From a virus (Duplodnaviria > Caudoviricetes), in IMG/VR virus record IMGVR_UViG_3300022752_000016: a DNA stretch of 64,000 nt, one strand, 5' to 3'. The notes under the pieces were generated by a model. It did not search any database. It was not told the origin of the DNA and worked only from the letters and a program-made list of their open reading frames with translations. Both the position numbers and the translations under genes were made by a program. Positions 5,227 to 29,681 of the stretch are shown piece after piece. Within the stretch, counting starts at the first letter, position 1; each line of letters starts with the position of its first letter.

Positions 5227-5545
5227 AGATTTTATTGTTATATATGAAGCACCTGTTATTGAAAAACCTGAATTTAGATTATATTATGATGAAAAAGGTA
5301 ATGTCTTATCATACACTACTGATAAACTTGAAGGTAATTATATTGTCATAGATGCTGCAACTTTTGCTGAAGGGCGACCTGATGTAATTGTATTAGACAA
5401 TAAAATAACTAAAAAAAGTTTGACAACAATTTCTTCTAAGTATGTTCCTAGTGATAATCCTGAAGTTATTTGCCATAAGGATGATATATCAATAATAACT
5501 AATAAAAAAGGAAAAGGTTGGGTAATAAAGTTTTATGAATTATGA
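5207..5545 (+). CDS. Hypothetical protein
   Basis: 112-aa ORF overlapping both neighbours in operon. Confidence 0.55.
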   Translation: MMPTENKDFIVIYEAPVIEKPEFRLYYDEKGNVLSYTTDKLEGNYIVIDAATFAEGRPDVIVLDNKITKKSLTTISSKYVPSDNPEVICHKDDISIITNKKGKGWVIKFYEL

Positions 5546-6497
5546 TAACATTATTGATGTTGCTGATTTAGACTGTATATATCTTAGTTACGACGAACCG
5601 CAAAAAGAAGAATTTTGGCTCAAAATAAAAAATATAGTACCATGGGCTAAAAGGGTGGATGGCGTAAAAGGAAGTGACGCTGCACACAAAGCAGCAGGCG
5701 AAAAAAGTGATACAGAAAGATTTATATTAGTCGATGGTGATAATATGCCAGATGAATCTTTTTTTAATATTCAACTTGATTTTACAGATAAAGATTTAAT
5801 TTACCATAAAGCACAATTTCGTTGGAAGGCAATTAACAGTATAAATGGTTTATGTTATGGTAATGGCGGAATGAGTTCATGGACTAAAAGTTATGTAAAA
5901 AATATGAAAACACATGAAAATCAAACTGAGGGTGACTTAACACGAGTAGTTGATTTTTGTATGGACAGTAGTGATAACATATATTGGGCAATGTGGGATT
6001 GTTATTCTGTTACATATCCAAATTATACACCTTTTCAAGCATGGCGTGCAGGTTTTCGTGAAGGCGTTAAAATGAGTCTTTACAGAGGCGAAAAACCTAA
6101 TGTACAAGATTTTAAAAACAATGTATCATCACGTAATCTTAATAATCTTACTGTTTGGCATAATGTTGGTGCAGATGTTGAAAATGGTTATTGGGCTATA
6201 TATGGTGCACGATTAGGTACTTATATGACTTTATTATCCAATTGGGACCCTAAAAATGTACAGTGGTTCGATAATTACATAGATATGTGGGAAGAATACA
6301 AGAATCTAGATGCAAATGAGTTAAATAATTCAATTGAGAATATAGGTAACATATTGTATGACAAGTTAGATTTGCCTATGTGTATTCTATCACCTTCACA
6401 AAGTAAATTCTTTAAAAGACATTTAAATTCTAATAGGTATAATCGTGGACCTTTAATAAGAGAAATGGATGTTATTCGCCAAATTGAAGGCTGGTAA
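5535..6497 (+). CDS. Glycosyltransferase-like protein (GT-A, DGD motif)
   Basis: RVDGVKG...FILVDGDN...NGLCYGNGG...AWRAGFREGVKM; homologous to C-terminal domain of the 1942-aa protein. Confidence 0.65.
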   Translation: MNYDNIIDVADLDCIYLSYDEPQKEEFWLKIKNIVPWAKRVDGVKGSDAAHKAAGEKSDTERFILVDGDNMPDESFFNIQLDFTDKDLIYHKAQFRWKAINSINGLCYGNGGMSSWTKSYVKNMKTHENQTEGDLTRVVDFCMDSSDNIYWAMWDCYSVTYPNYTPFQAWRAGFREGVKMSLYRGEKPNVQDFKNNVSSRNLNNLTVWHNVGADVENGYWAIYGARLGTYMTLLSNWDPKNVQWFDNYIDMWEEYKNLDANELNNSIENIGNILYDKLDLPMCILSPSQSKFFKRHLNSNRYNRGPLIREMDVIRQIEGW

Positions 6498-7882
6498 TGA
6501 TTAATGAAGTAAGTACAATAAAAACCATAATACCTATTACAAACGAAATAAGTCAAACATTTTGTTACGCTAAATGGTATCATACAACAATTTACTTACA
6601 TATGGGAGAAACCCATAGTTGTTATCATCCTGCTCCCCATAAAGTTCCTTTGCAAGAATTAGAAAATAATCCAAGTGCGTTACACAATACAATTCATAAA
6701 AAAAAAGAACGTGCATTAATGCTTGTCGGTGAAAAACCTTCAGGTTGTCAATATTGTTGGAATGTCGAGTCTTTAGGTTCTGATTATGTTAGTGATAGGC
6801 ATATTAGAAATGCAAGTTTACATAGAAATAACTTTTACAACGAAATTACGAGCCAACCTTGGGATCAAAATATTACCCCAGATTATATAGAAGTGAGTTT
6901 TAGTAATGAATGTAATTTTAAATGTGGTTATTGCCATCCTAAACATTCAAGTAGTTATTACAATGAAATAAAATCATATGGGCCTTACTTAGATGTTTCT
7001 AATCATGCAAATAATATCAATTTATTTAAAATTCATAAGGAAGAGGATAACCCATATATTGAGGCATGGTGGAAATGGTGGCCTGAACTTAGCAAAAAAC
7101 TTAATATTTTACGAATTACAGGTGGTGAACCTCTTTTACATAAAAGCACATGGAGATTATTTGAACATTTAAATAAAGAGCCTAAACCAAATTTAGAATT
7201 AAATTTAAATAGTAACTTTGGAGCTAAAAATCAATTTATTTTAAAATTATCGGAAAACGTTAATAATCTTTTAAATAATAACAAAATAAAATCATTTAAA
7301 ATTTTTTCTAGTATGGAAACTTGGGGCGATAGGGCTGAATATATACGTACTGGTTTAGATATTAATTTATGGGAAAAGAATTTAGATTCTTACCTACAAA
7401 TTACAAAAAATCCAATTACTTTTATGTGTACTTTTAATATTCTTACAGTAACTTCTTTTATATTATTTTTAGAAAAAATATTAGAATGGAGATATAAGTA
7501 TAAACACTTGTTTAATAACTATGAGGATAAAAAACAAAAAATTAAATTTGACACTCCATACCTAAAAGAACCATTACAATTTGATATGCTTATATTACCA
7601 AAAAAAGAATTTTTGCCTTATTTTGATAAAATATTAAAATTTATATCTGATCATAAAGATGATAGTGATTTTACAAAATTTAGTGAATTAGAATATGAAA
7701 GGTTTCGTAGGATTCGTGATTACTTTGCCACAAAAGAATACTCAATTGAAAAAATTGTAGAAGGAAGAAATGATTTTTACAATTGGTTTAATCAATATGA
7801 CGAACGAAGGAATTTGAATTTTAAAAAAACTTTTCCTGAAATGGTTAATTTTTTTGAAGAGTCTGGAAATCTTACTAAGTAA
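6497..7882 (+). CDS. Radical SAM protein with extra N-terminal Cys cluster
   Basis: CNFKCGYC (CxxxCxxC), ITGGEP motif, N-terminal FCYAKW/SCYH/GCQYCW. Confidence 0.85.
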   Translation: MINEVSTIKTIIPITNEISQTFCYAKWYHTTIYLHMGETHSCYHPAPHKVPLQELENNPSALHNTIHKKKERALMLVGEKPSGCQYCWNVESLGSDYVSDRHIRNASLHRNNFYNEITSQPWDQNITPDYIEVSFSNECNFKCGYCHPKHSSSYYNEIKSYGPYLDVSNHANNINLFKIHKEEDNPYIEAWWKWWPELSKKLNILRITGGEPLLHKSTWRLFEHLNKEPKPNLELNLNSNFGAKNQFILKLSENVNNLLNNNKIKSFKIFSSMETWGDRAEYIRTGLDINLWEKNLDSYLQITKNPITFMCTFNILTVTSFILFLEKILEWRYKYKHLFNNYEDKKQKIKFDTPYLKEPLQFDMLILPKKEFLPYFDKILKFISDHKDDSDFTKFSELEYERFRRIRDYFATKEYSIEKIVEGRNDFYNWFNQYDERRNLNFKKTFPEMVNFFEESGNLTK

Positions 7883-7886
7883 TAAA

Positions 7887-8624
7887 ATGAATAATTTAAC
7901 AGAAATATTTTCACAAAATGTGTTAATCGATGAAAATACAAAAATTCTAGATGATCCTGTACGACATTGTATAAAAAAGAATTTTTTACCATATGATGTA
8001 GCGATTGGGATGTATAATGAAATTAAACAAATTGATAATACTTTATTAAAACATTTCACCAGAAATGGTAGTAATATGTATGAACTTATAGGAAATTATA
8101 ATGTGATTCCAATCGCATTTAACCTAATAGGTTATCTAAATAGCGGAAGTTTTCTCAAATCACTAGAAGATGTTACAGGTATTAAAGGATTGATATCCGA
8201 TCCATATATTTTAGGTGCTGGATATAGTAAGATTTATAATGGAGATAGAATAAAAGTTCATACTGATTTTAATTGGAATGATAACTTAAAATTACATAGA
8301 GCATGTTCTTTAATTATTTACCTAAGCCCTGATTGGAAAGAAGAGTATGGTGGAGCGTTAGATTTTTACGACAAATTTGGTGAAAATATTGTATCAACTG
8401 TGCCATGTTTATTTAATACCTGTTTAATTTGGAACTATAATAAATTTGGATTTCATGGCTGTACACAACCAGTACAATGTCCAAGTGATAAATTTAGAGC
8501 AGCATTTAGATTATTTTACTATACCAGTAATAGCACTTTTAAAGAAGATGATCCTCCTCACAGAAGCCAATATTGGAAAGATAACAAAACAAATTTACCC
8601 TATGACATAAAAGGATATAAATGA
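7887..8624 (+). CDS. 2OG-Fe(II) oxygenase (prolyl-hydroxylase-like)
   Basis: KVHTDFN (HxD) ... FHG ... R facial-triad pattern, YLSPDWKEEYGGALDF; start moved to ATG 7887. Confidence 0.75.
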   Translation: MNNLTEIFSQNVLIDENTKILDDPVRHCIKKNFLPYDVAIGMYNEIKQIDNTLLKHFTRNGSNMYELIGNYNVIPIAFNLIGYLNSGSFLKSLEDVTGIKGLISDPYILGAGYSKIYNGDRIKVHTDFNWNDNLKLHRACSLIIYLSPDWKEEYGGALDFYDKFGENIVSTVPCLFNTCLIWNYNKFGFHGCTQPVQCPSDKFRAAFRLFYYTSNSTFKEDDPPHRSQYWKDNKTNLPYDIKGYK

Positions 8625-14714: not shown

Positions 14715-15734
14715 ATGCACTATTCAAAAAAAATTTTAGATATTAATGAAAATTTGAAAAAAACTAAGAAATTATTTATTTCTTCAGGGTGTTCATATGT
14801 TGCAGGCAAGGCTGCATGGCCAAAATCTTTTATGGAAGAGTTTAGACCAAATTTTGACAATTATTATTATACTTGGGATCATTTAAGCAATAAACAAAAA
14901 GAATTAGCAATTAAAAAATTTCCAATTATAACAAATAATAATAATGTTTTTGAAACCATTAATTTAGAAGTTGATAATTCATTTACATCAATATTGCACA
15001 AAAATTACATTCCTAATTATACAATAGCTAATCTTGGAGAACAAGCAAAAGGATTATTTTCAAGTGTAATGAATTTATATGTTACACCAATTCAATTTGC
15101 ATTGGCAGATGAAATTATTTTATTTTTTTGTCCCACTGATTTACAACGATTTGATATCTTAAGCGATGAATATGCTTTTACAGACTCAAACGTTGCGGCA
15201 TGCAGATTATTTAACACATTTTGGCCTTTTGATAATGAAAAAAAAGATCCTATAGGACTTTTACAACTTGGGTATTCTCAGGCTGTACATAGTCTTAGAT
15301 TTGAAATCGTACATGCTATTATGTGTTTTAAATTGCTAATTAATTGGATAGAACAGTATAAGGCAAAATTAATTATATTTCCTGCTTTTAACAAGATTTA
15401 TAACAAAAATTATTTTTATGAAAATTTGGATATAACAATACTGCGTGATAAAACATTAAAACAAAAAGAAATAAAACATTTTACATTTAGAGATAGTTCA
15501 AATTTTTATATAGATAATTTTGTTCCATGGGATAATTTTACAACATTTGATGGTTTTAATACTTTTTTTGATTTAGCGTTTGGTCAAGAAAAAAACTATG
15601 ATCCAAATATTGAAATGCAAAGTTTGGTTGGACCAAATGGCGGAACATTAAATCAATTTATTATGAAATGTGGTCATCCAGGCGTTGAGGCACATGAATT
15701 ATTGGCAAAAAAAATTTATGAAAAATATTTTTAA
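14715..15734 (+). CDS. SGNH/GDSL-like protein (paralogue)
   Basis: SGCSYVAG, NLG, C-terminal GHPGVEAH. Confidence 0.5.
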   Translation: MHYSKKILDINENLKKTKKLFISSGCSYVAGKAAWPKSFMEEFRPNFDNYYYTWDHLSNKQKELAIKKFPIITNNNNVFETINLEVDNSFTSILHKNYIPNYTIANLGEQAKGLFSSVMNLYVTPIQFALADEIILFFCPTDLQRFDILSDEYAFTDSNVAACRLFNTFWPFDNEKKDPIGLLQLGYSQAVHSLRFEIVHAIMCFKLLINWIEQYKAKLIIFPAFNKIYNKNYFYENLDITILRDKTLKQKEIKHFTFRDSSNFYIDNFVPWDNFTTFDGFNTFFDLAFGQEKNYDPNIEMQSLVGPNGGTLNQFIMKCGHPGVEAHELLAKKIYEKYF

Positions 15735-16635
15735 TTATTTAAAAGAAAAATATACAATAAAAATTGATACTATTACTAAAAAAGAATCTTTTCATTTTAA
15801 AACATTTGATTCTTTGCCAATCAATTCAAATTTTTATGATTTTATAAATCATCCATTTTATAATTATCTTGATGACAATGTTCAATTAAAAAATTATTGT
15901 GGTAGTGATAATTATGAATTATTAAAAAAAAATATTATCCACCAACCATTGGAATGGAAATATGGTTTAAAAAAAATTACATATAGACTTAATAAAAGTG
16001 GATTCCGTACATATGAATTTAAAGACATTGATTGGAGAAATTGTATTGTTTTATTGGGTTGTAGTAATACGTTCGGAATAGGTGTTGATGAAGACGAAAC
16101 ATTATCGTATTTTTTAGAAAAATTAACAAATAAACAAGTAGTTAATTTAGGGATGGGGGGAATTTCAAATGATGTTATTATTGAAAAGTTAAACATTATT
16201 ATTAATAAATTTGAGATTCCTACTAACATTATTATTAATTGGACTTCACCTGACAGGTTTAGGTATTATTTAAAAAACAAATTCATAGATTGTGGTAATT
16301 GGATCACTGAGGAGAGTGAAAGAGAGTTGCAAAAAAATCAACTTTTTGGAAAAGAATTAGAAACAGTAAATTTAAATACACTTTATTATAATTTAAATGC
16401 CATAGAAACAAATATATATTTTAAAATGCGTAATTTAAGTAATATTTCTAAAGCACTTTCTAAAAATAATTTTAATTTAATTACATTTAGTTGCTTCCCT
16501 GACGCAGCATATTATAGTGAATCAGATTACTTTTTTCCAGATGACTCTAAGGTAAATAAGGCAAGAGATTTAATACACCCAGGCTCGGATTATAACCAAA
16601 TAGTAGCTGAGACAATTGTAGGTAAATTAAAATGA
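15718..16635 (+). CDS. SGNH/GDSL-like protein
   Basis: LGCSNTFGIG, NLGMGGISND, C-terminal DLIHPG (DxxH); start moved to ATG 15718. Confidence 0.6.
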   Translation: MKNIFNYLKEKYTIKIDTITKKESFHFKTFDSLPINSNFYDFINHPFYNYLDDNVQLKNYCGSDNYELLKKNIIHQPLEWKYGLKKITYRLNKSGFRTYEFKDIDWRNCIVLLGCSNTFGIGVDEDETLSYFLEKLTNKQVVNLGMGGISNDVIIEKLNIIINKFEIPTNIIINWTSPDRFRYYLKNKFIDCGNWITEESERELQKNQLFGKELETVNLNTLYYNLNAIETNIYFKMRNLSNISKALSKNNFNLITFSCFPDAAYYSESDYFFPDDSKVNKARDLIHPGSDYNQIVAETIVGKLK

Positions 16636-18146
16636 GTTTTTACAATCAAAATGCAGACCTTGCCGAAAAACAACTTAAATTTATTAGTAAAACTATGTGT
16701 TATGCTAAATGGGCGCAAGTTAGCATTCATTTAACAAATGGTATGACACAAAGTTGTTACCATCCACCTTTACATAAAATTGACACAAAAGAAATAAAAA
16801 ATAATCCAAGTGCACTTCATAATACAAAACAAAAGAAACAAGAAAGAAAATTAATGCTTCAAGGAGAAAGACCTGAAGGGTGTAATTATTGTTGGAAAAT
16901 AGAAGATAGCGGTGCAAGAAGCGATAGAATTTATAGATCAGGTGAATATTGGGCTCAAAATGCACGTATCGATATCATTGAAAATTTAGATACAGGTGAC
17001 ATAGATCCAAGATATGTAGAAGTAAATTTTAATCAGGCTTGTAATTTTAAGTGTATGTATTGTAGTCCTCATTTGAGCACAGCATGGGAAGATGAAATTA
17101 AAAAATATGGACCCTATTTATTAACTCATAATGAAAATACTAAAAAACATAATGATTTACATTCTTTAAAAAAACTTGGTCTTATGCCGTTAAAAATCAA
17201 ACAGAACGAAAATCCTTATGTAGATGCTTTTTGGCAATGGTGGCCTAAACTTTACAACAGTTTGGAAGTTTTTAGGCTGACAGGAGGCGAACCATTAATG
17301 GATATTAATACATATAAAATTTTAGATTATATTTATAATCATCCAAATGCTTGGTTAGAGTTAAGCGTTACTAGTAATTTTTGTCCGCCTAAACAGGAAT
17401 TAATGGAAAAATTTATTGAAAAAGTAAAAAAATTAGAAGAAATACAAATTTGGAATGATCCTAATAGGTTTAATTCGGGCTCGGGTAATAATTGGTATGT
17501 TAATATGGCTTTAAAACATTTTAGTTTATTTATAAGCCTTGACAGTGTAGGAAAACAGGCAGAGTATATTCGTTATGGCTTAGATTTTAATCTAATGACC
17601 GAAAACATATATCAATTTTTAAACAATACTAAAAACACAAATTTAACCTTTATTAATACATTTAATGCTTTAAGTGTTATAAAAATTAAAGAATTTCTAG
17701 AATATATTCTAGACTTACGTTCAATTTATAGTAAAGACAATCAAGGAGTTCAGTATATACCAATAAGCGATCCATATACAAAACATCCTGATTACGTTAT
17801 AAACCCAAGGCAAAGAATATGGTTCGATTTACCTATTTTACGAAATCCAATTTGGCAAAGTTTTCTTATTTTACCGAAAAAATATGATACATACATTGTT
17901 GATGCGATTAATTTTATGGAAAAGCATAAGGATACTGATAATTTTGTTGGTTTTTATGATTTTGAAATAGATAAACTAAAAAGAAATTTAACTATTTTAA
18001 AAGAAAATCGTTTTGTTGATAATGATGCTAAAAATCATAGAAAAAACTTTATTGAATTTTTTAAACAGTATGATGCAAAAAAAAATATTTCTTTTAGTAA
18101 AGCTTTTCCTGAATTTGAAAACTTTAAGGAAGAATTATGTTTATAA
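16632..18146 (+). CDS. Radical SAM protein (paralogue of 6497..7882)
   Basis: CNFKCMYC, LTGGEP, N-terminal MCYAKW/SCYH/GCNYCW. Confidence 0.85.
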   Translation: MSFYNQNADLAEKQLKFISKTMCYAKWAQVSIHLTNGMTQSCYHPPLHKIDTKEIKNNPSALHNTKQKKQERKLMLQGERPEGCNYCWKIEDSGARSDRIYRSGEYWAQNARIDIIENLDTGDIDPRYVEVNFNQACNFKCMYCSPHLSTAWEDEIKKYGPYLLTHNENTKKHNDLHSLKKLGLMPLKIKQNENPYVDAFWQWWPKLYNSLEVFRLTGGEPLMDINTYKILDYIYNHPNAWLELSVTSNFCPPKQELMEKFIEKVKKLEEIQIWNDPNRFNSGSGNNWYVNMALKHFSLFISLDSVGKQAEYIRYGLDFNLMTENIYQFLNNTKNTNLTFINTFNALSVIKIKEFLEYILDLRSIYSKDNQGVQYIPISDPYTKHPDYVINPRQRIWFDLPILRNPIWQSFLILPKKYDTYIVDAINFMEKHKDTDNFVGFYDFEIDKLKRNLTILKENRFVDNDAKNHRKNFIEFFKQYDAKKNISFSKAFPEFENFKEELCL

Positions 18147-18237: not shown

Positions 18238-19719
18238 ATGCAATATATAGGAATTTCAAGTCATTTTCATGACGCTGCAATAACTCTTTTGTCCAATAAT
18301 GGGGATATATTATTTGCAGGACATAGTGAAAGATATAGTAAAACTAAACATGATTCACTATTAAATATTGATTTAATTAATGATCTGTTATACTATGACA
18401 ACAAATATGATAAGTTTTCAATTCATTATTATGAAAGACCTTTTATAACACAATTAAGACAAATTAGAGCAGGTCAAAAACTTGATTTTGTTACAACTAA
18501 AAGTCGTATAGGCAAACCAATTTTACAAATGTTAGGCAATCCTGATATAAAAAATTATAATCACCATTTAAGTCATGCAGCCGCGGGTTTTCAAACCAGT
18601 CTATTTGATAATGCTACAGTTGTTATAATAGATGCAATTGGAGAATTCGATACAATATCAATTTATGATGCTTATTATAATGATAAAGGATATGCAAAGT
18701 ATAAAAAACTATATAGTCAAAAATATCCTAATAGCATTGGATTATTTTATAGTGCAATGACTAAAAGAGTTGGATTGAAACCTTTAGATGAGGAATATAT
18801 TTTAATGGGCATGTCAGCTTATGGGATAGATAAACATAGTGGGGAAATGTTAAAATTCTTTAATGATATAAAAAATATTGAAATGAATACTAATTTGCAT
18901 ATAGGGGTAGATGATAATTTTTTATTTGGTGCTGATTTAATGGATATTGCATGTAGTACTCAAGTGGTTGTTGAGCAGTTGATTGAAATAGTTATGAGTA
19001 AAGCAAAATTACTAGGACGAAGTAATAATCTAGTTTATGGAGGAGGCGTGGCTTTAAATTGTTTAGCAAACAGGAAATTAGGAAATTTTTTTGATAAAAT
19101 TTGGATAATGCCGAATCCTGGTGATGCAGGGAGTAGTCTAGGTGCTGCTGCATTAGGATATGGAAAAAGATTAAAATGGGAAAATGCATTTTTAGGATAT
19201 GATATTAAAGGTGTGTATCCAATAGATAATATTCTTAAAGAACTAAACAGTAATAAAATAGTAGGTGTTGCCAATGGGCGTGCAGAATTTGGACCAAGAG
19301 CCTTAGGTAATCGAAGTTTATTAGCTGATCCACGCGGTAATTTAATTAAGGATAAAGTTAACGAGATTAAGCGTAGACAAAAATTTAGACCATTTGCTCC
19401 TGTGATACTTGAGGAATATGTAGATGAGTATTTTGTAATGCCAAAAGGATTTAGTATCAGTCCATATATGCAAGTAGTTGCAAAATGTAAACAACCTGAA
19501 TTATTACCAGCTATTATACATCATGATGGTACGAGTAGGGTACAAACAGTAGGTAAGGACAATACGGGAATAAGAAAACTTTTAGAAAAATGGTATGATT
19601 TAACAAAATGTCCTTTGTTATTAAATACATCACTAAACATACGCGGTGAACCTATGGTTAATGATAAAAAGGATGCAGTTAGATTTGAAAATCTGTACGG
19701 AGTTAAAGTTTTTTCATAA
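18238..19719 (+). CDS. Carbamoyltransferase (CmcH/NodU family)
   Basis: HDAA..., HHLSHAA metal site, GGVALNC, GDAGSSLG, RAEFGPRALGNRS, LLNTSLN. Confidence 0.92.
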   Translation: MQYIGISSHFHDAAITLLSNNGDILFAGHSERYSKTKHDSLLNIDLINDLLYYDNKYDKFSIHYYERPFITQLRQIRAGQKLDFVTTKSRIGKPILQMLGNPDIKNYNHHLSHAAAGFQTSLFDNATVVIIDAIGEFDTISIYDAYYNDKGYAKYKKLYSQKYPNSIGLFYSAMTKRVGLKPLDEEYILMGMSAYGIDKHSGEMLKFFNDIKNIEMNTNLHIGVDDNFLFGADLMDIACSTQVVVEQLIEIVMSKAKLLGRSNNLVYGGGVALNCLANRKLGNFFDKIWIMPNPGDAGSSLGAAALGYGKRLKWENAFLGYDIKGVYPIDNILKELNSNKIVGVANGRAEFGPRALGNRSLLADPRGNLIKDKVNEIKRRQKFRPFAPVILEEYVDEYFVMPKGFSISPYMQVVAKCKQPELLPAIIHHDGTSRVQTVGKDNTGIRKLLEKWYDLTKCPLLLNTSLNIRGEPMVNDKKDAVRFENLYGVKVFS

Positions 19720-19727
19720 GTAGACTT

Positions 19728-22700
19728 ATGATTAGAGATGTTTTTTATTATGGCAAGAAGCCTAACATTCATCCAAGAGAAAGATTTGCTAAAAACCTTG
19801 AAGAAGCAAGAGAGTTATCAAATACAGAGCATTTTTGGATAATAAATGAATTTTGTGATTATAAAAATTTTGATTGGGATTTCGATTACGAATTTTTACC
19901 AGACGAGGATGTATGGGCGCAGGATCATATAAATATATGGCCAAGTTTATATCAAAAAGATAGTGGAACATGGTTAGTTCCAAATAATAATAGTTTAGTG
20001 AGAATTTACAGAAATGATGTACAACCTGTAGATAGAAAAATAATTAAAGATAATTGGATTATTTATTCACAAATAGACAGTAAAAAATTTGATTTAAAAT
20101 GGCATCCTGATCCACTTGATCCGCCCTTTATTTATGTATGGGGGAATAAATTTATACCAGCAGAACTGCAACCTACAATAGAATATTATACACCTAGTGC
20201 TGTTGAACGAAAATACATGGGTGAAGTTGAGGTATTACCACAAATGGAACGTTGGGTAATGGTTCAAGATATAACTGAGGATTTTGATTTAACTTGGAGA
20301 CCTGATCCAAGAGAACCTCCGTACATTTACGTTTGGGGAAACAAATATATACCTGGAGAGTTACAATCTACAATTGAATATCATACTCCTAATGCAATCA
20401 ATAAAAAATATATGGGTAATGCACCTGTTTTACCTGATAAAAATTGGAAAATTATACAGGAAATTGATAAAACTAAATTTGATTTATCTTGGAGACCTGA
20501 TCCACGTGAACCTCCATACATTTATACTTGGGGAAATAAGTTTATTCCTGCTGAAATAATGCCTACAATTCAATACTTATGTCCAAACGCTACTGAACAT
20601 AAGTACATGCAAGAACCATTAGAGGTATTACCTGAATATGAAAAATGGGTAGAAGTACAGGCTATCGATAAAACTAAATTTGATTTATCTTGGAGACCTG
20701 ATCCACGTGAACCTCCATATATTTACGTTTGGGGAAACAAATATATACCTGGTGAATTATTACCTACATTGCAATATAATTGTATAGGAGCAAAAGAATA
20801 CAAATATATGGGTGATGTTGAGGTTATTCCAGAACACGAAAAATGGGTAGAAGTACAGGCTATCGACAAAACAAAATTTGATTTATCTTGGAGACCTGAT
20901 CCACGTGAACCTCCATACATTTATACTTGGGGAAATAAATATATACCTGGTGAATTAATGCCAACTTTAGAATATAGATGTATTGGAGCAACAGAACGCA
21001 AATATATGGGTGATGTTGAGGTTATTCCAGAACACGAAAAATGGGTCGAAATTCAACTAATTGATAAGACAACATTTGACATGACATGGAGACCTGATCC
21101 AAGAGAACCTCCATATATTTACGTTTGGGGGAATAAGTTTATTCCTGCAGAATTAATGTCAACTTTAGAATATAGATGTATTGGAGCAAAAGAATACAAA
21201 TATATGGGTGATGTTGAGGTTATTCCAGAACACGATAAATGGGTCGAAGTGCAGTTAATTGATAAGACAAAATTTGACATGACATGGAGACCTGATCCAA
21301 GAGAACCTCCATATATTTACGTTTGGGGGAATAAGTTTATTCCTGCAGAATTAATGCCAACTTTAGAATATAGATGTATTGGAGCCACTGAGCGAAAATA
21401 TATGGGAAATATTGATGTATTGCCTGAGTTTAATAGATGGGTCGAAGTTCAAACTATTGATAAGACTAAATTTGATATGACATGGAGACCTGATCCAAGA
21501 GAACCACCTTATATCTATGTATGGGGAAACAAATATATACCAGGCGAATTAAAATCAACAATTGAATACCATACCCCTAATAGTACTGAACGTAAGTATA
21601 TGGGAGATGTTGATGTTTTACCAGAAACAGAACGTTGGAATATTGTTCAAAAACCTAAGGATTTTGATTTAACATGGAGACCTGACCCAAAAGAACCACC
21701 ATACATTTATGTATGGGGCAATAAATATATACCTGGGGAGATACAATCTACAATAGAATATCATACACCTGACGCTCAAGAAATAAAATATATGGGTGAC
21801 ATAGAAGTTGTACCATATTATGAACATTGGAATATTGTGCAAGAAGTCGGTGATGATTTTGATCTTTGTTGGAGACCTGATCCAAGAGAACCACCATACA
21901 TTTATGTATGGGGGAACAACTATATACCTGGCGAGGTTAAAGCTACAATTGAATATCATACACCTAATAGTATTGAACGCAAGTATATGGGTATTGCCAG
22001 TGTTAAACCTGACAAAAATTGGAAAATTACACAGGATATTGATATTGAAAAATTTGATTTATGTTGGAGACCTGATCCTAGGGAGCCTGCATACATTTAT
22101 ACTTGGGGTAATAAGTATGTAAGTGCTGAACTAGTACCAACCATTGAATATTATACTCCTAACGCCACTGAACGTAAGTATATGGGTGAAGTAGACGTTA
22201 TTCCTGAATTTGATCGTTGGGTAGAAGTACAACCAATTGACAAATCAACATTTGATATGACATGGAGACCTGATCCAAGAGAACCACCATACATTTATGT
22301 ATGGGGTAATAAACATATTCCCGCCGAACTAAAACCCACGCTAGAATATTATACTCCAAACGCAACAGATAGAAAATATATGGGTAATGTTGAAGTTTTA
22401 CCAATAAACGAAAATTGGAAAATTACCCAAGAAGCTATAAACTTTGATTACACATGGAGACCGGACCCAAGAGAACCTGATTATATCTATGTATGGGGTA
22501 ACAAGTATATACCTGGCGAGTTAAAACCTACAATTGAATACATTTGTCCTAACGCTATTGAAAAAAAGTATATGGGGAATGTTGAAGTAGCCTCTGAATG
22601 GGACAAATATAGAATACTGATCCCTGTTGATAAGAATAGTTTTGATTTTAGTTGGAGACCTGATCCAAGAGAGCCTCCCTATATTTACGTTTGGGGCAAT

Positions 22701-25556
22701 CAAACTAATAGTGCCACTATAGAACCTACGATAGAATATCATTGCACAGGTGCTGTTGAACGCAAATACATGGTTGACAGAGTAGCTACAACGTTACCAG
22801 ATATTGAAAAATTTAAAATTTTAATTTCAGTAAAAGATTTTGATTTTAGTTGGAGACCAGATCCTCATAGTCCTCCTTATATCTACGTGTTTGGTAACCA
22901 ATGGCATGATGCAATGACTGAACCTACAGTAGAATATCATGTACCTGGTGCGAAAGAAAAAAAATATATAACAGATATTATAGCGAAGGTAAGTCCTACA
23001 CAGGAAAATTGGAAAACACTTATCCCTGTTGTAGATTTTGATTATAGCTGGAGGCCTAACCCACACAGTACTCCATACATTTATGTATTTGGAAATCAAT
23101 GGAATCCTATTGAATTAGAGCATACAGTTGAATACCATACACCTGGGGCAAAAGACTACAAATATATAACAGATATTGTAGCAAATCTTAAACCAACTAA
23201 CACTGAAAAACATTGGAAAAGGTTGTTACCTGTTGAAAGTTTTGATTATAGTTGGAAACCTGATCCAAGAGAACCTGCATTAATATATGTATTTGGAAAT
23301 AAATGGAATGATTCTAAGACTGAGCCTACTATTGAATATCATTGTGAAGGTGCTACAGAACGAAAATACTTAGATTTTCCTGTAGCTAAACCCACAGTTG
23401 AATTTAAATATTGGTCCATATCAAATAATTACGATCTAGAATCATTTGATTTTAGTTGGAGACCTAATCCGCATAGTCCACCACAAATTTATCAATGGGA
23501 AAATAATGGTCCAAGATATAATGTACCAGGTGCTACAGACGTTGTATTAATGAAAAGAATTGATACTGACTATGCACCGAAAATTAATAAATATTTTATT
23601 AAAACTAACCTTACCGATTTGATTAGTGAACATCCAAATGAAGTATTTTGGGCTTTAAATCCTGATCTAAATTATGATAAGTTTGACTTTACATGGAAGC
23701 CTAATAAAGAAAATTTTACACACATAAATGTTTTTGGTAATGAATATAGTAAAAATACCCACACATATTATATAAACGGGCCAATGTATAACTTGGGATA
23801 TAGGCAATATAATTATATAAATAATCAAAAATTTAGTGGGGATACAAACCTTTCAATGTTTTTTATTGATAGGGGTAATGATTATAGTCAAAAAAGATTC
23901 GATGCACTTAAAACAAAGTACCCACAATTACAAAAAACAAGATTTCTAAATTCTTGGGTAGATACTATTAATCGTTGCACTCAAAAATCTTATACAAAGT
24001 TCCTTTGGGTTTTAAGTAGCGAATTAGATTATAGTGAATTTGAGTTTGACTTTTATCCTAGTCCATGGCAAGAAAAAATGGTACATGTGTTTGGTACACA
24101 ATGGAGTCATTGGGGTAATACATACCTAATAAACAAGGAAACATTTGCAAATGATACTAAGTATATAAAAATTATTGAACATTTGTCATGTTTAAATTTT
24201 GTCAAAACTAAACGTGCAAAAGCTGTGGACATTATTTATGATATTGTCTATATTGACCACAAAAATACAAAAGTGGATAGTAATAAATTTAAATATGTGA
24301 TTGAGTATGAGGATAATTATTATAAAACTTTTAAAAAATTAATTGATGTTTTACCTAAAAAGAAAGAGCATTATATTTGGATAATAAGTTCAATCTGTGA
24401 TTATACAAACTTTAATTTTACTTACATTTGTGACCCATTTGCTAAAGAACAATTACACGTTTTTCCAAGCGATAAACAAAAATATGGTGACACATTTTTT
24501 GTAGACGTTAATAATTTACGTGAACAAATTGAAAATATTGAAAAACTTAAAAATTTTACAAAAATAAATTTTAATAATCATCAAACAGTAAAAAGATTAG
24601 ATTGTCCTAAATTTGTAATAGAGGATGATACTTTTGTAAATTCAATTAATGTTGAATTTAATTTTCCCTATGCAAATTTTGTAACGGTAGATAATTGTAC
24701 ATTAAATGTTGTGGACGATGATCCAATCAATTTGTGGGAAGAAGAAACAAAAAATATTATAGTGCAAAGTACAGGTAATACAAATATTATTATACCCAAA
24801 GAAGTAAAGAAATATGTAAAAAAAGAATTGTATGATTATCCTTATATCACTAAACGTGATAAATTACAATCAAGTTTTCCATTAGATATTGTTTTTTTAA
24901 GTAATGGTGAAAAAAATGCTGATGCAAACTATGAACATCTATTATCTGTAATAAAAAATAAACCAAATAGAGTAATAAGAGTTGATGGTATTAATGGTAG
25001 AAAAAATGCAAATTACGCAGTTGCAGATATTAGTAATACTCCTTGGATGTTTGTAGTATTTGCAAAGTTAAAAGTAAAAGAAAACTTTGATTGGGATTGG
25101 CAACCTGATAGAATGCAATTACCAAAACATTATATTTTTTATGCTAGGAATCCTGTTAATGGTTTGTTTTACGGACACCAAGCAATGATAGCATGGAATA
25201 AAAATATAGTTTTACAAACACAAGGAGTAGACTTAGATTTTACAATGGAAGGTAACCATGAAGTTGTTAAGATAGATAGCGGAACACCTTATTATAATAC
25301 AGATGAATATAGCACATGGAGGACTGCTTTTAGAGAGGTTATAAAATTGAAGTATTACAACAATAAAGAAAGTCAGCATCGTTTAAAAGTATGGTCAAGT
25401 ATAGCAGAAGGTGATTTTGCCCAATTTAGTTTACAAGGAGCAAAACATGCTATAGATTACTTTAATGCGGTTGATGGTAATATTGATAAATTAAAATTAA
25501 GTTACGAATGGGCTTGGTGTAAAGAATATTTTCTTAAAAAGTATGATAGAATTTAA
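19728..25556 (+). CDS. 1942-aa tandem-repeat protein with C-terminal glycosyltransferase-like domain
   Basis: 18 clear ~60-aa repeats (FDxxWRPDPREPPYIYVWGN...) plus degenerate copies; C-terminal DIVFLSNGE...RVDGING...WRTAFREVIKL domain. Confidence 0.8.
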   Translation: MIRDVFYYGKKPNIHPRERFAKNLEEARELSNTEHFWIINEFCDYKNFDWDFDYEFLPDEDVWAQDHINIWPSLYQKDSGTWLVPNNNSLVRIYRNDVQPVDRKIIKDNWIIYSQIDSKKFDLKWHPDPLDPPFIYVWGNKFIPAELQPTIEYYTPSAVERKYMGEVEVLPQMERWVMVQDITEDFDLTWRPDPREPPYIYVWGNKYIPGELQSTIEYHTPNAINKKYMGNAPVLPDKNWKIIQEIDKTKFDLSWRPDPREPPYIYTWGNKFIPAEIMPTIQYLCPNATEHKYMQEPLEVLPEYEKWVEVQAIDKTKFDLSWRPDPREPPYIYVWGNKYIPGELLPTLQYNCIGAKEYKYMGDVEVIPEHEKWVEVQAIDKTKFDLSWRPDPREPPYIYTWGNKYIPGELMPTLEYRCIGATERKYMGDVEVIPEHEKWVEIQLIDKTTFDMTWRPDPREPPYIYVWGNKFIPAELMSTLEYRCIGAKEYKYMGDVEVIPEHDKWVEVQLIDKTKFDMTWRPDPREPPYIYVWGNKFIPAELMPTLEYRCIGATERKYMGNIDVLPEFNRWVEVQTIDKTKFDMTWRPDPREPPYIYVWGNKYIPGELKSTIEYHTPNSTERKYMGDVDVLPETERWNIVQKPKDFDLTWRPDPKEPPYIYVWGNKYIPGEIQSTIEYHTPDAQEIKYMGDIEVVPYYEHWNIVQEVGDDFDLCWRPDPREPPYIYVWGNNYIPGEVKATIEYHTPNSIERKYMGIASVKPDKNWKITQDIDIEKFDLCWRPDPREPAYIYTWGNKYVSAELVPTIEYYTPNATERKYMGEVDVIPEFDRWVEVQPIDKSTFDMTWRPDPREPPYIYVWGNKHIPAELKPTLEYYTPNATDRKYMGNVEVLPINENWKITQEAINFDYTWRPDPREPDYIYVWGNKYIPGELKPTIEYICPNAIEKKYMGNVEVASEWDKYRILIPVDKNSFDFSWRPDPREPPYIYVWGNQTNSATIEPTIEYHCTGAVERKYMVDRVATTLPDIEKFKILISVKDFDFSWRPDPHSPPYIYVFGNQWHDAMTEPTVEYHVPGAKEKKYITDIIAKVSPTQENWKTLIPVVDFDYSWRPNPHSTPYIYVFGNQWNPIELEHTVEYHTPGAKDYKYITDIVANLKPTNTEKHWKRLLPVESFDYSWKPDPREPALIYVFGNKWNDSKTEPTIEYHCEGATERKYLDFPVAKPTVEFKYWSISNNYDLESFDFSWRPNPHSPPQIYQWENNGPRYNVPGATDVVLMKRIDTDYAPKINKYFIKTNLTDLISEHPNEVFWALNPDLNYDKFDFTWKPNKENFTHINVFGNEYSKNTHTYYINGPMYNLGYRQYNYINNQKFSGDTNLSMFFIDRGNDYSQKRFDALKTKYPQLQKTRFLNSWVDTINRCTQKSYTKFLWVLSSELDYSEFEFDFYPSPWQEKMVHVFGTQWSHWGNTYLINKETFANDTKYIKIIEHLSCLNFVKTKRAKAVDIIYDIVYIDHKNTKVDSNKFKYVIEYEDNYYKTFKKLIDVLPKKKEHYIWIISSICDYTNFNFTYICDPFAKEQLHVFPSDKQKYGDTFFVDVNNLREQIENIEKLKNFTKINFNNHQTVKRLDCPKFVIEDDTFVNSINVEFNFPYANFVTVDNCTLNVVDDDPINLWEEETKNIIVQSTGNTNIIIPKEVKKYVKKELYDYPYITKRDKLQSSFPLDIVFLSNGEKNADANYEHLLSVIKNKPNRVIRVDGINGRKNANYAVADISNTPWMFVVFAKLKVKENFDWDWQPDRMQLPKHYIFYARNPVNGLFYGHQAMIAWNKNIVLQTQGVDLDFTMEGNHEVVKIDSGTPYYNTDEYSTWRTAFREVIKLKYYNNKESQHRLKVWSSIAEGDFAQFSLQGAKHAIDYFNAVDGNIDKLKLSYEWAWCKEYFLKKYDRI
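20080..23520 (+). repeat. Intragenic tandem array of ~180-nt units (tggagacctgatcca core)
   Basis: Near-identical DNA units, most similar between ~20480 and 21550. Confidence 0.9.
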
Positions 25557-25561
25557 AAAAT

Positions 25562-25696
25562 ATGTTATTACTTTTTTCATCTCATTTAAATCATTCTATT
25601 TTACAAAATTTATCACAGGAAGAAAGATTTGTAGTTGCTTTTAATTTTTTTATGAAGGGAAATATAGGTACTAATGAATGGATGTTAAAACTATAA
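25562..25696 (+). pseudogene. C-terminal remnant of a 2OG-Fe(II) oxygenase-like gene
   Basis: MLLLFSSHLNHSILQNLSQEERFVVAFNFFMKG resembles the distal H...R..hFN strand region; in-frame stops at 25544-25549 remove the N-terminal part. Confidence 0.55.
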
Positions 25697-25699
25697 ATA
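25692..25699 (+). promoter_or_regulatory. Late promoter TATAAATA in front of tmRNA acceptor piece
   Basis: Perfect consensus just upstream of the acceptor piece. Confidence 0.65.
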
Positions 25700-25704
25700 A
25701 AGAA

Positions 25705-25774
25705 TAAAGAATTGTTGTATGAAGTTGAAGGAAAAGTGCTGCGGACGCGGGTTCGACTCCCGCCTGGTCCACCA
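25705..25774 (+). ncRNA. ssrA: tmRNA acceptor piece of a circularly permuted (two-piece) ssrA
   Basis: GGAC-GCGGG-TTCGACT-CCCGC T-arm, CTGGTCC-A-CCA end pairing with GGGCCAG at 26001 including G3-U70; TGTTGT (25713) pairs with ACAACA (26042); 5' end approximate. Confidence 0.9.
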
Positions 25775-25813
25775 TAAGGAAATATCCATAAGGAAATATC
25801 CATAAGGAAATAT
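25772..25813 (+). repeat. Three perfect copies of CCATAAGGAAATAT (14 nt)
   Basis: 25772-85, 25786-99, 25800-13; first copy begins at the tmRNA CCA, last ends at ATG 25814. Confidence 0.95.
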
Positions 25814-25999
25814 ATGAGAGTTACAAACACAGAATCAATTCAACTTACACCTAAAGATGGTAAATGGTATGCTATGCCAAATGACCAATACATTAGATGG
25901 AATTTTGATGAGAGAATTTGGGATTATATGATCACAAAAGAAGGGGACACAAAGCCTAGATTTTGGGATCAATTACCGGATGGTACGGTTTCCTTATGA
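25814..25999 (+). CDS. 61-aa Trp-rich protein inside the tmRNA intervening segment
   Basis: SD AAGGA 5 nt upstream; fills the intervening segment; TGA ends 1 nt before the tmRNA 5' G. Confidence 0.65.
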   Translation: MRVTNTESIQLTPKDGKWYAMPNDQYIRWNFDERIWDYMITKEGDTKPRFWDQLPDGTVSL

Positions 26000-26000
26000 T

Positions 26001-26170
26001 GGGCCAGACATGGTTTCGACGGGGTAAAGAGTACGGATATGGACAACACGGTAGGCGAAGACCGCAAATCTAGCAAAGCAAATAGACGCAAATGACGACT
26101 ATTTTTATCAGGATCTCAAGCTAGCCGCTTGAGCCTGACGGGGTAGGAAAGACCTTGTAACCAAACAAAC
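26001..26170 (+). ncRNA. ssrA: tmRNA coding piece; tag ANDDYFYQDLKLAA* (26088-26132)
   Basis: GGGCCAGACATGGTTTCGACGGGG 5' end, AAATAGAC-GCA resume context, LAA-stop tag, stop codon in CTCAAGC/GCTTGAG hairpin; 3' end approximate. Confidence 0.9.
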
Positions 26171-26171
26171 C

Positions 26172-26193
26172 TAGGCTCTACGGAGCCTATTTT
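26172..26193 (+). terminator. Rho-independent terminator after tmRNA
   Basis: TAGGCTC-TACG-GAGCCTA-TTTT. Confidence 0.75.
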
Positions 26194-26328: not shown

Positions 26329-27342
26329 ATGAAAAAACTTTTATTAGCGTCACTTATTGCAGGTGCTACATCAGTTGCAGTTGCACAAACAACTGTATAT
26401 GGTTTGGCTGATGCATATTATGGACATCAAACAAATGCAAAAAATAGCAATCAAGTAAATGCTGGTGGTATGACAACTAGTTACATTGGTATCAGTGCAT
26501 CTGAAAAAATTGGCGATCTACAAGCTAGAGCAGTATTAGAGACATTTTTGCGTCCTGATACCGCACAACAAGGTCGTTTTAATAATGATACTTTTTATGC
26601 AAGAAACGCATATGTTGCACTATCATCTAAAGCAGGTGAAGTACAACTTGGTCGTGTAACTACACCATACTTTATCTCAACAATTGCATTTAATGCATTA
26701 GGTGATAGCTTTGTATTCAGTCCAACAGTAACATCAAGGGTTGGAGTTAATAACTTTAATCTTGGTGGTGGTGGAAGTGATACAGGATGGAATAACTCAG
26801 TTTTAGTAAAAACTAGTATGGCTGGTTTAGCACTTACAGGTGTCTATAGTGCAGGAGTTACTGATGATAGCAACGCAAAATTATCAGGTAAAAGCGTTGG
26901 CGCCATGTACTTTCAAGGTCCAATTGGTTTAACTGCAACTTGGCAAGACGTAGAGCAAGGCGCAGGTAAAGCAAGTATGTCATCAACAATCGTTGGTGCA
27001 AGTTATGATCTTAAAGTAGCAAAGGTGTTTGCTCAACATGAGACTGTTAAAAACAGCGATAATGTAACAAAAGAAGATAGAGGTTATACAGTAGGCGCAA
27101 CAATGCCAATGGGTAAAAATACTCTAATGGCAAGCTATGCAAAGAAAGACCATGATTTCACAAATGGTAGAACTGCTGAAACAGCAAGCTGGGCAGTAGG
27201 TGTAAGCCATGCACTAAGCAAGCGTACTGATTTATATGCTGCTGTACGTGATACAAATTATACTAATGACGGTTTAAATAGAACAAATGCAAACTTCGTC
27301 GATACCCGTGTAACAGGTGTAGGCGTACGTCATCGTTTTTAA
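26329..27342 (+). CDS. Gram-negative general porin (Betaproteobacteria-like)
   Basis: Signal peptide, TTVYGLADA N-terminus, YALSKRT-like HALSKRTDLYAA, C-terminal GVRHRF with terminal Phe. Confidence 0.88.
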   Translation: MKKLLLASLIAGATSVAVAQTTVYGLADAYYGHQTNAKNSNQVNAGGMTTSYIGISASEKIGDLQARAVLETFLRPDTAQQGRFNNDTFYARNAYVALSSKAGEVQLGRVTTPYFISTIAFNALGDSFVFSPTVTSRVGVNNFNLGGGGSDTGWNNSVLVKTSMAGLALTGVYSAGVTDDSNAKLSGKSVGAMYFQGPIGLTATWQDVEQGAGKASMSSTIVGASYDLKVAKVFAQHETVKNSDNVTKEDRGYTVGATMPMGKNTLMASYAKKDHDFTNGRTAETASWAVGVSHALSKRTDLYAAVRDTNYTNDGLNRTNANFVDTRVTGVGVRHRF

Positions 27343-27584: not shown

Positions 27585-29681
27585 ATGGACATTAAAGAAC
27601 TACACTCATTTAGATTAAGTGACGCAGTAAAATTTCAGGATAAACTTAACCCAAAATTATTCTTGGGAAACCGTTTAGATCCTGCTGTAAAAAATCAATT
27701 AATTACAATTGCTAAAGATTTTCTTACAGAATTAGGGATAGGTGATGTAAAAGTTAAAGATATAACAATATCAGGTAGCAATGCAGCATTTACTTATACA
27801 CCACATAGCGATTTAGACTTACACATAGTTGTTGATTATAATCAATTTTCCAATGATAGCGTTTACAAAGAATTGTTTAACGCTAAGAAAAATTTATACA
27901 ACGATAGTCATAACATTACAATACGTGGTATTCCAGTAGAAGTATATATGGAAGATAGCAATGAACCAGTCATTAGTGTTGGTGAATACAGTATACTAAA
28001 GGATAAATGGAATCAAATTCCAACTAAACGTAGAGCAAACTTTGATCAAACTGCCACTAAGGCGAAGTATGGTAAACTAAATGATTTTATACTAAGAGCA
28101 TTAAAAGAAAAAAGTAGCAAAAAGATAGCCAAAGCATTAAAAATAATTAAGCGTTACAGACAAGCAGGGTTAGATAAAGGTGGTGAGTTTAGTCCTGAAA
28201 ATTTAGCATACAAAGCTTTACGTAGTCAAAAAGCAATTGAAAAACTATATAAGTTGCGTGATGAATTACATAGTAAAGAATTAAGTATTGAAAACATGTA
28301 TCAGGAACAAAAGCTAAATCGATTCGATGAAGACATTCCAGTTCAAAAAGGACCAGCGCGGTTAAAAAGACAAAGTGAATTAGAAAAGACACAAGACGAA
28401 TTAGGATCAGGTTTTTTTGGTACAGTTTATGATGAACCAAAAAGTAAAACTGGTGTAGGCACTGCTAGAAAAGTTTCTACATTTGATAGAGATGAGATGA
28501 CTGCTGACGGGTATTATGCTTATATCAATAAGATTATTGATCTTAAAAATGAAACTAATAATCCATACTTACCACAAGTATATGATGCTAAAGTTGTAAA
28601 ACCAAAGTCAGTAGGAAGTGAGCCATACTTTGAATTAGAACTTGAAAAATTAAGTAAATGGGAAGATTTAAGTGGTAATCAATTACGAGCAATACTAGAA
28701 AAAATGCTTGATGAAAGTTTTGAAAATGAAAAGAAACTACAAGATGTTTTGAAATTTTTAGGGCATTCAGGTGCGTCAGATACGAGTGACGAATGGTTAA
28801 TGTATGTAATTTTATATTTTATTAGGCTTACAATTAAAAATCCAAACTTTAGTTTAATGGGTATGAAAATTCGTGACCCACAACTTCTTGAAGTCACTGA
28901 TATGTTAAGATATCTGTCTAAGTCAGGGTATGGTATGGACTTACATGATCAAAATATCATGGTAAGAAATAGTAAATATGGCCCACAATTAGTTATTACA
29001 GATCCTTTAAGCTTTGGTGAAACTAGTCAGATACGAAAATTTAAACAAGGCAATATGAAAATGGATGTAAGGGGTGTAACTATACCACCTAATTACATAA
29101 TTTATGACATACATGATAAAGATAGACCAGTATTGCGTGGCTATGGCAGTTACGAAGAAATCTACCAACAATTCATAGAATTAAAGAATAAAAAACCATA
29201 TAATGATTATGAAATAGCTCCAATGAATCAAAAAGCTTCGGATGAAATGGATGCGAAGCAAGCAAGTGTAAAAGCAAAGTATAAAGAAAAACCACCTGCA
29301 AATCCTAAATATCAGCTTAAACCAAAATATACTTATGCTGTTTATGATAAAGATAAAACAAGCAATATGCTAATTGGTTATGTTAATGCTAACCATGATT
29401 CTGAAGCATTGGGATTGGCAAGAAAAAAATTCCCCGATGTAAAAAATATTAATGTGTTGCCTGATTTACTTGGTGATCCAAATGATAAATTTGCTGGTAT
29501 GTTAGAAGAAGCATTGGGTGAAAGTGCCTCGGGATATATCCCAAGCAAAAAACAAGCTAATGACCCAAGATTTAAGACTGCCTTGACAGTAGACATAAAA
29601 CCCGATAGCATCCAAAAGAATGCCAAAGCTTTTGGGTTTAAAGTAAAAAGGTCTGGAATCCCACCCCTGCTAAGACCCTAA
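27585..29681 (+). CDS. Pol-beta-family nucleotidyltransferase fused to a protein-kinase-like domain
   Basis: ISGSNAAFTYTPHSDLDLH (GS..DxD); LGSGFFGTVY, RKV, DLHDQNIMV, VITDP kinase motifs. Confidence 0.75.
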   Translation: MDIKELHSFRLSDAVKFQDKLNPKLFLGNRLDPAVKNQLITIAKDFLTELGIGDVKVKDITISGSNAAFTYTPHSDLDLHIVVDYNQFSNDSVYKELFNAKKNLYNDSHNITIRGIPVEVYMEDSNEPVISVGEYSILKDKWNQIPTKRRANFDQTATKAKYGKLNDFILRALKEKSSKKIAKALKIIKRYRQAGLDKGGEFSPENLAYKALRSQKAIEKLYKLRDELHSKELSIENMYQEQKLNRFDEDIPVQKGPARLKRQSELEKTQDELGSGFFGTVYDEPKSKTGVGTARKVSTFDRDEMTADGYYAYINKIIDLKNETNNPYLPQVYDAKVVKPKSVGSEPYFELELEKLSKWEDLSGNQLRAILEKMLDESFENEKKLQDVLKFLGHSGASDTSDEWLMYVILYFIRLTIKNPNFSLMGMKIRDPQLLEVTDMLRYLSKSGYGMDLHDQNIMVRNSKYGPQLVITDPLSFGETSQIRKFKQGNMKMDVRGVTIPPNYIIYDIHDKDRPVLRGYGSYEEIYQQFIELKNKKPYNDYEIAPMNQKASDEMDAKQASVKAKYKEKPPANPKYQLKPKYTYAVYDKDKTSNMLIGYVNANHDSEALGLARKKFPDVKNINVLPDLLGDPNDKFAGMLEEALGESASGYIPSKKQANDPRFKTALTVDIKPDSIQKNAKAFGFKVKRSGIPPLLRP

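Follow-up and report, generated by a model that had tools for sequence, protein, structure and literature searches.

A giant phage protein with a length-variable repeat array and a glycosyltransferase-like tail closes a conserved enzyme operon

Several described enzymes hold more than one glycosyltransferase (GT) domain of the GT-A type in a single chain or complex, and some of these domains are non-catalytic or accessory. They include the K4 chondroitin polymerase of E. coli (2z86), Mimivirus R699 (9dyt), LH3 and LH3/ColGalT1 (6fxr, 8zgc), and CHSY3-CHPF (9q8z). R699 is a collagen glucosyltransferase (PMC12279948). None of these assemblies has a tandem array of GT-A fragments, which the protein described here appears to carry. 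Its gene lies on the plus strand at 19728..25556 of a 64,000-nucleotide (nt) stretch of viral DNA, hereafter the window, which comprises bases 32001-96000 of the 137-kb IMG/VR virus record IMGVR_UViG_3300022752_000016. We refer to this 1,942-amino-acid (aa) product (P0001) as the giant protein.

Two further kinds of protein invite comparison. WbdD of E. coli O9a is a molecular ruler in O-antigen synthesis that depends on an ATP-binding cassette (ABC) transporter (PMC3482155), and coiled-coil spacers of the WbbB type have been reviewed (PMC11231755, PMC5082667). The giant protein may resemble these rulers in mechanism, not in ancestry, as its rigid spacer would lie between modules of a glycan-assembly protein and could set a dimension of the product. 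Their spacer is a coiled coil, whereas that of the giant protein is predicted to be all-beta; their length is conserved, whereas the rod of the giant family ranges from 0 to 38 units. No terminating activity such as that of the WbdD/WbbB rulers was identified for the giant protein. Phage decoration proteins, of which T4 Hoc represents a class with variable numbers of repeated domains, offer a different parallel. Like the giant protein, Hoc-like decoration and fibre proteins have small beta domains in tandem, vary in copy number between related phages and keep a terminal module conserved; they differ from it in that the giant gene lies in an enzyme operon and its product matched no immunoglobulin (Ig)-like or known fibre fold. 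Homology ties the tail of the giant protein to a family of stand-alone phage GTs, all annotated as hypothetical, that includes P0358 from the same operon and gp350 and gp348 of Ralstonia phage RsoM2USA.

The architecture of the giant protein, the variation of unit number across its family, the change of DGD to FAK in its tail and the frame of its operon are firm. Around them we place a tentative reading, in which our confidence falls a little short of even: the giant protein would be a length-variable, stalked platform subunit of a phage glycan-tailoring operon, with its rod as an evolvable spacer. Nearly all of it would derive from a single ancestral sugar-transferase domain of the GT-A type. 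Its parts would be a small head at aa 1-118, an acidic, all-beta and rigid rod made of 17-19 pieces of 66 aa, and a conserved 563-aa tail. Each piece of the rod would be the counterpart of the GT-A segment next after the DxD strand, and the tail would comprise two degenerate mini-modules and one full GT-A-like domain (domain 3). The stand-alone transferase is predicted to dock on mini-module 1, and the rod may fix the distance from the head to the transferase-bearing tail. Rod length, which varies in the family by gain and loss of units and by recombination, would be the evolvable parameter, and the remodelled pocket of domain 3 may bind a nucleotide-sugar or glycan, or catalyse without a metal. 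A more ambitious form of this reading seems to us unlikely. It would have a post-DxD GT-A fragment amplified into a new rigid all-beta fold that serves as an evolvable ruler, whose 0-38 units tune the distance from the head to a docked unit of two transferases, and thereby how long a phage-made glycan is, or where it is placed, on the virion or host envelope.

A preliminary description of the window had reported one 1942-aa repeat open reading frame (ORF) at 19728-25556, and this is what we find. A relaxed motif, W.P[DN]P....IY.[WF][GE]N, occurs 18 times in the giant protein, the exact motif WRPDPREPPYIYVWGN occurs eight times, and W[RHK]P[DN]x recurs 19 times at spacings of 64-68 aa. A profile of the unit recovers 17 strong, well-formed copies at aa 119-1237 (20082..23438, plus strand), each with an independent E-value (i-E) of 1e-28 to 1e-38, two degenerate copies at aa 1238-1343 (i-E 1.3e-7 and 5.8e-5) and two marginal traces in the C-terminal part; run against all ORFs of the 137-kb record, it matches no second ORF. 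The units are rich in Trp, Pro and Tyr, as had been described (W 4.5%, P 11%, Y 8% over the array, with a net charge of -49), and at 64-68 aa they are longer than the roughly 60 aa first proposed. Thirteen unit columns are invariant (F3, D4, W7, P9, P11, I17, Y18, G21, N22, T32, Y35, K44 and Y45), and Tandem Repeats Finder (TRF) returns periods of 192-198 nt and 396 nt in the array. The head (19728..20081, plus strand) resembles a degenerate mini-module akin to mini-module 2, with its aa 34-88 matching aa 1547-1596 at 36% identity (BLASTP, E 4e-6). Neither a signal peptide nor a transmembrane segment is predicted.

That the repeat belongs to no named family was confirmed by searches of Pfam, PHROGs, PDB sequences and 1.84 billion representative proteins. 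The last search (HMMER) found 118 matches to the repeat profile, all of them members of the giant family or fragments thereof, so the repeat is restricted to one lineage. Against PDB sequences the repeat profile reached E 0.14 or worse, and the tail profile likewise returned nothing usable. We rejected the Pfam candidates DUF4160, YdaS_toxin and RE_EcoO109I, which were below cut-off or had no independently passing stretch, and PHROG 36895, which had zero such stretches, as composition or repeat artefacts.

The family is large and its rods differ greatly in length. After clustering at 90%, matches to the giant protein over its whole length number at least 823, with sizes of 1,068-3,399 aa, and the last 563 aa are matched by more than 4,000 proteins of 309-986 aa at 52-64% identity. 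The family occurs on contigs of up to 370 kb, and its sole match among cultured phages is RsoM2USA, which has small stand-alone proteins only. Its abundance (more than 800 long and more than 4,000 shorter forms) is matched by no informative name: every member is labelled hypothetical, and our literature searches found no publication on the giant family. Among the sequences in hand, 196 relatives are complete, in that both the N-terminal head and the C-terminal module are present. These hold 0-38 units, and their length follows 712 + 67.7 x units (r = 0.996). Both end modules are found at any unit number, and a head begins all 196. This length law with constant end modules shows that the rod is dispensable for the end modules and acts as an insert of variable length. 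Variation in copy number, which had been predicted from this one gene, is thus evident across relatives, and extends to a single 90% cluster, whose members P0026 (18 units) and P0359 (21 units) share 88% identity and are set apart by three N-proximal units.

Turnover within the array is uneven. Units 14-19 have positional orthologues in every compared relative, among them degenerate units 18-19, which with the junction that follows span aa 1238-1379 (23439..23864, plus strand); units 1-12 have none. A tract of about 2 kb (21462..23441, plus strand; aa 579-1238, units 8-17) is 95-100% identical in protein sequence to P0005, the closest relative, and its flanks are 47-85% identical, a mosaic that indicates recombination between diverged phages within the gene. 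The most alike copies are units 4-7 (20673..21464, plus strand), which have no 1:1 counterpart in P0005 and represent a lineage-specific amplification. Their DNA identity is 73-89% (87-89% between neighbours), and the remaining pairs within the 17 well-formed units reach 47-80%, so the near-identity of central copies that was first described is an overstatement. Among units 4-7, pairwise synonymous divergence (dS) is 0.35-2.4 and the ratio of nonsynonymous to synonymous divergence (dN/dS) 0.07-0.34. Because dS is at least 0.35, these duplications are not recent in this gene, and the low ratios show purifying selection since. Across the family, 22 of 125 multi-unit proteins have a pair of units at least 95% identical, the closest pair often lying one, two or four units apart. 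Such highly alike pairs in relatives indicate that amplification is ongoing at the family level, with the copies in this genome old and constrained. The recent or ongoing expansion first read from this gene therefore fits its family and not the gene itself.

Folded with 58 homologues, the last 563 aa (aa 1380-1942) yield a model with a predicted local distance difference test (pLDDT) of 90.8 and a predicted template modelling score (pTM) of 0.81. Mini-module 1 (aa 1380-1501; 23865..24230, plus strand; model pLDDT about 90) is an alpha/beta half-domain with an FxFxxxPxP hairpin and no DxD. Mini-module 2 (aa 1502-1631; 24231..24620, plus strand) is its paralogue by hhalign (98.2%, E 3.6e-14). 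The model's secondary structure places a beta-rich linker at aa 1632-1705 (24621..24842, plus strand), and domain 3 with a helical tail follows at aa 1706-1942 (24843..25553, plus strand). The top Foldseek matches of the tail are the multi-GT-A enzymes R699, K4 chondroitin polymerase and LH3, at probabilities of 0.9-1.0. Such assemblies are its best neighbours by Foldseek and VIA, and the predicted pairing of the tail with an active GT is a further likeness; they differ in that whole-chain template modelling (TM) scores are 0.12-0.22 and identities to the tail 6-13%. The domain 3 model has a Rossmann-like alpha/beta/alpha nucleotide-binding fold, and its residues 339-477 (aa 1718-1856) align in VIA with GT-A enzymes at Z 10-11.6 and a root-mean-square deviation of about 3 A over 130-143 residues, with B4GALNT1, WrtF, SpsA and STIV A197 among the neighbours. 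Nucleotidyltransferases of the same fold reach Z 9-10, so the fold by itself leaves the reaction of domain 3 unfixed.

By sequence, domain 3 is homologous to the stand-alone GTs: it is 28% identical to P0358 (BLASTP, E 5e-11) and 30% identical to RsoM2USA gp348, and hhalign aligns it to the family over 190 columns (98.3%, E 2e-14). Motifs RVDG, N.xNGL.YG, DFT and WR..FRE are common to both. In 33 members of the stand-alone family, D67, G68, D69, N110, G111 and G112 are invariant; the giant protein differs in having F-A-K (aa 1778-1780; 25059..25067, plus strand) at the DxD position, where the V-D-G-D-N of P0358 and gp348 reads V-F-A-K-L and hhalign sets DGDN against FAKL. It also differs in a G-N-G-G to G-H-Q-A change that is fixed in the giant family, and in that domain 3 is fused behind two mini-modules, a rod of 17-19 units and a head. 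No canonical DxD is present in the head, in mini-modules 1 and 2 or in domain 3. The Lys of F-A-K, at the position of the second Asp, is invariant in the 58 homologues and persists as [F/N][A/G/S]K in relatives with as little as about 35% identity. The sole exception is P0353, a distant multi-module protein of 1,123 aa from a metagenome whose C-terminal GT-like domain has D-A-D, and which may be an intermediate between active stand-alone GTs and giants of the FAK type. Judged from these alignments, the pocket of domain 3 looks remodelled and still under selection, not decayed.

The scaffold role that the preliminary description envisaged is supported by the predicted docking of the operon's stand-alone GT. 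We predicted the complex of the 563-aa tail with P0358 in three runs alongside three controls. The interface score ipSAE was 0.60-0.61 in the three runs and 0.00 in the best control; of 80 solved complexes 58 attain this mark, and of 110 mismatched pairs 2 do. The three runs agreed in at least 88% of their contacts, and partner pLDDT was at least 82. On the giant protein the predicted interface comprises aa 1383, 1403-1408, 1412-1420 and 1544-1546, and its core at aa 1403-1420, KTRFLNSWVDTINRCTQK (23934..23987, plus strand), is the most conserved stretch of mini-module 1. On P0358 it takes in the N-terminus together with residues 74-82, which form the post-DxD segment of that protein. P0358 is predicted to dock on mini-module 1.

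The link to glycan machinery, also first proposed from sequence, is borne out by the position of the gene as well as by its GT-A-like tail. P0358, a 320-aa paralogue with an intact DGD, stands at the head of the operon (5535..6497, plus strand), beside a twitch-domain radical S-adenosylmethionine (SAM) protein (NF033640, 288.6 bits against a cut-off of 170; 6497..7882, plus strand). The giant gene closes the operon, 8 nt after a NodU/CmcH-type carbamoyltransferase gene (18238..19719, plus strand). A 333-kb contig of another jumbo phage (L008) has the same frame, namely a 112-aa protein, the DGD-type GT, the twitch radical SAM protein, a variable interior, the carbamoyltransferase and the giant gene, with equal spacing between the last two. 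There the DGD transferase is 70% and the carbamoyltransferase 65% identical to its counterpart in the window, the giant-family protein has 983 aa, and AAA and DUF2201 genes come next. RsoM2USA has a minimal triad of gp350 (GT), gp349 (twitch radical SAM) and gp348 (GT), in which the stand-alone GTs again share an operon with a twitch radical SAM gene; gp349 is the orthologue of the 6497-7882 protein, at 35% identity. The stand-alone GT family has no Pfam, PHROG or NCBIfam model.

For the rod we folded aa 316-579, a block of four units, with an alignment of 113 such blocks. The model is an all-beta monomer with four strands per unit (pLDDT 97.1, pTM 0.83), and the high pTM over four units indicates that the units would pack in a fixed fashion, as a rod. 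Foldseek found no PDB match at E <=1e-3, and among 48,161 chains VIA returned six with Z >=2, the best at 2.3; four of these six PDB chains are GT-A enzymes, each aligned over about one unit. In the Atlas and BFVD the matches were uncharacterised phage proteins of the same family only; such a missing fold match is no proof of a new fold. By sequence profile, repeat columns 1-20 align weakly with domain 3, immediately behind the strand at its DxD position (hhalign E 4.8e-4), the repeat aligns to the matching segment of mini-module 1 (E 1e-3), and BLAST links join units, mini-modules and head. The unit is thus probably an amplified post-DxD piece of a GT-A domain.

Several observations weigh against the platform reading or its parts. 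The GT-A origin of repeat and mini-modules is weak in sequence, with hhalign probabilities of 21-32%. The match of mini-module 1 to the stand-alone GT family is not significant (hhalign E 0.28), which leaves the GT-A origin of the mini-modules resting on structure and a chain of weak links. The docking stretch is absent or deleted in some distant relatives. The docking score of 0.60-0.61 expresses model confidence, which supports an interaction but does not demonstrate binding, and comes from shallow alignments with rows 53-84% identical, and because both chains are GT-A-like, likeness to solved GT pairs may raise it. A spread of 0-38 units far exceeds what enzyme rulers are known to show and is rather what phage fibres or decoration proteins tend to have. 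Finally, domain 3 keeps nearly all family motifs (SNGE, DG.NGR, NPVNGL.YGHQA, LDFT and WRTAFRE) together with its invariant Lys; these fit an active, remodelled enzyme equally to a binding module, so that 'non-catalytic' is not established.

In one alternative the giant protein would transfer sugars itself, by an altered chemistry. Its domain 3 would be active without a metal, the Lys replacing the cation held by DxD, and a long polymeric acceptor would be bound by the rod, or the rod would keep the enzyme attached to it. Some GT-A enzymes, such as GT14 C2GnT-L, do work independently of metal by means of basic side chains, and the invariance of the Lys, the coordinated and fixed change from GNGG to GHQA, and the retention of the remaining motifs, which decaying pseudo-enzymes usually lose, are all in keeping with such chemistry. 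We nevertheless think it improbable, since none of the four GT-like modules has a canonical DxD and a paralogue with an intact DGD is always present in the same operon, as expected if catalysis is delegated.

The length variation prompts another alternative, a virion fibre or decoration protein of the T4 Hoc kind, in which the rod projects, the GT-like modules form an anchor or a lectin-like tip, and length variation and mosaicism follow from adaptation to host or environment. Besides the range of unit number, the N-proximal turnover and the 2-kb recombination tract resemble those of fibre and decoration genes. A gene with an intramolecular-chaperone domain of the tail-fibre or tailspike type (Peptidase_G2) lies upstream on the same strand at 1106-2320, and the lack of a signal peptide and of a transmembrane segment suits such a role. 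Against this, the gene forms part of an enzyme operon, to which it is translationally close, and does not sit with head or baseplate genes. Phage fibres are usually trimers of intertwined chains, whereas the rod is modelled with confidence as a monomer. Among PDB and Atlas neighbours of the repeat there was no Ig-like, fibre or capsid-binding fold, although the lack of a match does not exclude one. On balance this role, too, is doubtful.

It is also conceivable that the array is not a spacer but the acceptor, with the operon's enzymes glycosylating conserved Thr, Lys, Asn or Tyr residues of the units to give a heavily decorated fibre, as Mimivirus fibrils are, and the tail recruiting the transferase in cis. 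No unit departs from T32, K44, N22, Y35 and Y45, the collagen-glycosylating enzymes R699 and LH3 are among the structural neighbours of the tail, the operon in the window has a 2-oxoglutarate (2OG)-Fe(II) oxygenase, and the GT is predicted to dock beside the array. Relatives with 0-1 units retain the full operon frame, though, so the enzymes need another substrate; the oxygenase lies outside the conserved frame, and the invariant residues may just form the core of a small beta unit. We therefore regard this role as distinctly unlikely.

Tandem repeats are easily mis-assembled in short-read metagenomes, but an origin of the array in faulty assembly, or in a frame that is open by chance, can be put aside with near certainty: the gene and its flanks are base-for-base the same in two further assemblies (ERZ27247970 and ERZ28576632, separate ENA analyses), the longest exact DNA repeat in the array is 85 nt, more than 800 long homologues exist, and dN/dS between units is 0.07-0.34.

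If the platform reading and its parts are true, the giant protein would clearly exemplify how amplification of an enzyme sub-domain can give rise to a new repeat fold, and the operon of GT, radical SAM protein, carbamoyltransferase and giant protein would be a core trait of an aquatic jumbo-phage clade. The natural series of rods with 0-38 units would also be suited to asking whether spacer length controls a glycan product.

By its gene content, the source looks like a jumbo myovirus distantly related to T4. CheckV gives the 137-kb record a completeness of 40%, which implies a genome of about 340 kb. The large terminase is of the T4 type, 48.6% identical to terminases of the Pseudomonas PA5oct group and Sinorhizobium phage Phosso, and the phage encodes gp32-like, UvsX/RecA-like and gp9/10-like proteins together with host-derived PhoX, PstS and porin genes. 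Its DNA has a G+C content of about 26-40%, and the plus strand holds nearly all genes. In the 20 kb 5' of the window (G000:C1:12001-32000, L012), a single unbroken frame of 6,666 codons probably represents a masked (N) stretch.

Within the operon, the variable interior is bracketed by two radical SAM paralogues that are 38% identical, the second being another twitch-domain protein (NF033640, 305 bits; 16632..18146, plus strand). In the window this interior holds the 2OG-Fe(II) oxygenase, an epimerase, the second radical SAM protein and sets of unnamed paralogues; in L008 it holds DUF6071, APH-like and HAD-like genes. One paralogue set comprises three proteins of 401, 479 and 471 aa (8621-9826, 9804-11243 and 12259-13674; 36-49% identical) and the other two of 345 and 339 aa (13676-14713 and 14715-15734; 27% identical). 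Neither set matches Pfam, PHROG or NCBIfam.

Signals for expression were less informative. A candidate T4-type late promoter, TATAAATA, at 18227, 5' of the carbamoyltransferase gene, was rejected: the box occurs in the window at the frequency expected by chance (19 found, 18.4 expected), the site is not kept at that place in L008, and we draw no inference on timing from it. A scan for sigma-70 promoters and terminators was uninformative.

Just 3' of the giant gene, at 25692-26193, lie a TATAAATA box, a tRNA-like 3' end and a small ORF, with three perfect 14-nt repeats at 25772-25813 after the tRNA-like end. Farther on, a porin gene (26329-27342; Porin_4, E 1.3e-40) sits between the giant gene and a nucleotidyltransferase (NTase) gene; its absence from the syntenic place in L008 points to an inserted host-like gene. 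The NTase-containing protein itself (698 aa; 27585-29681) is 61% identical over 236 aa to a 1,094-aa ParB_N/ART-PolyVal protein of L008 (13784-17068), and by sequence the two appear to have a common scaffold with different inserted modules.

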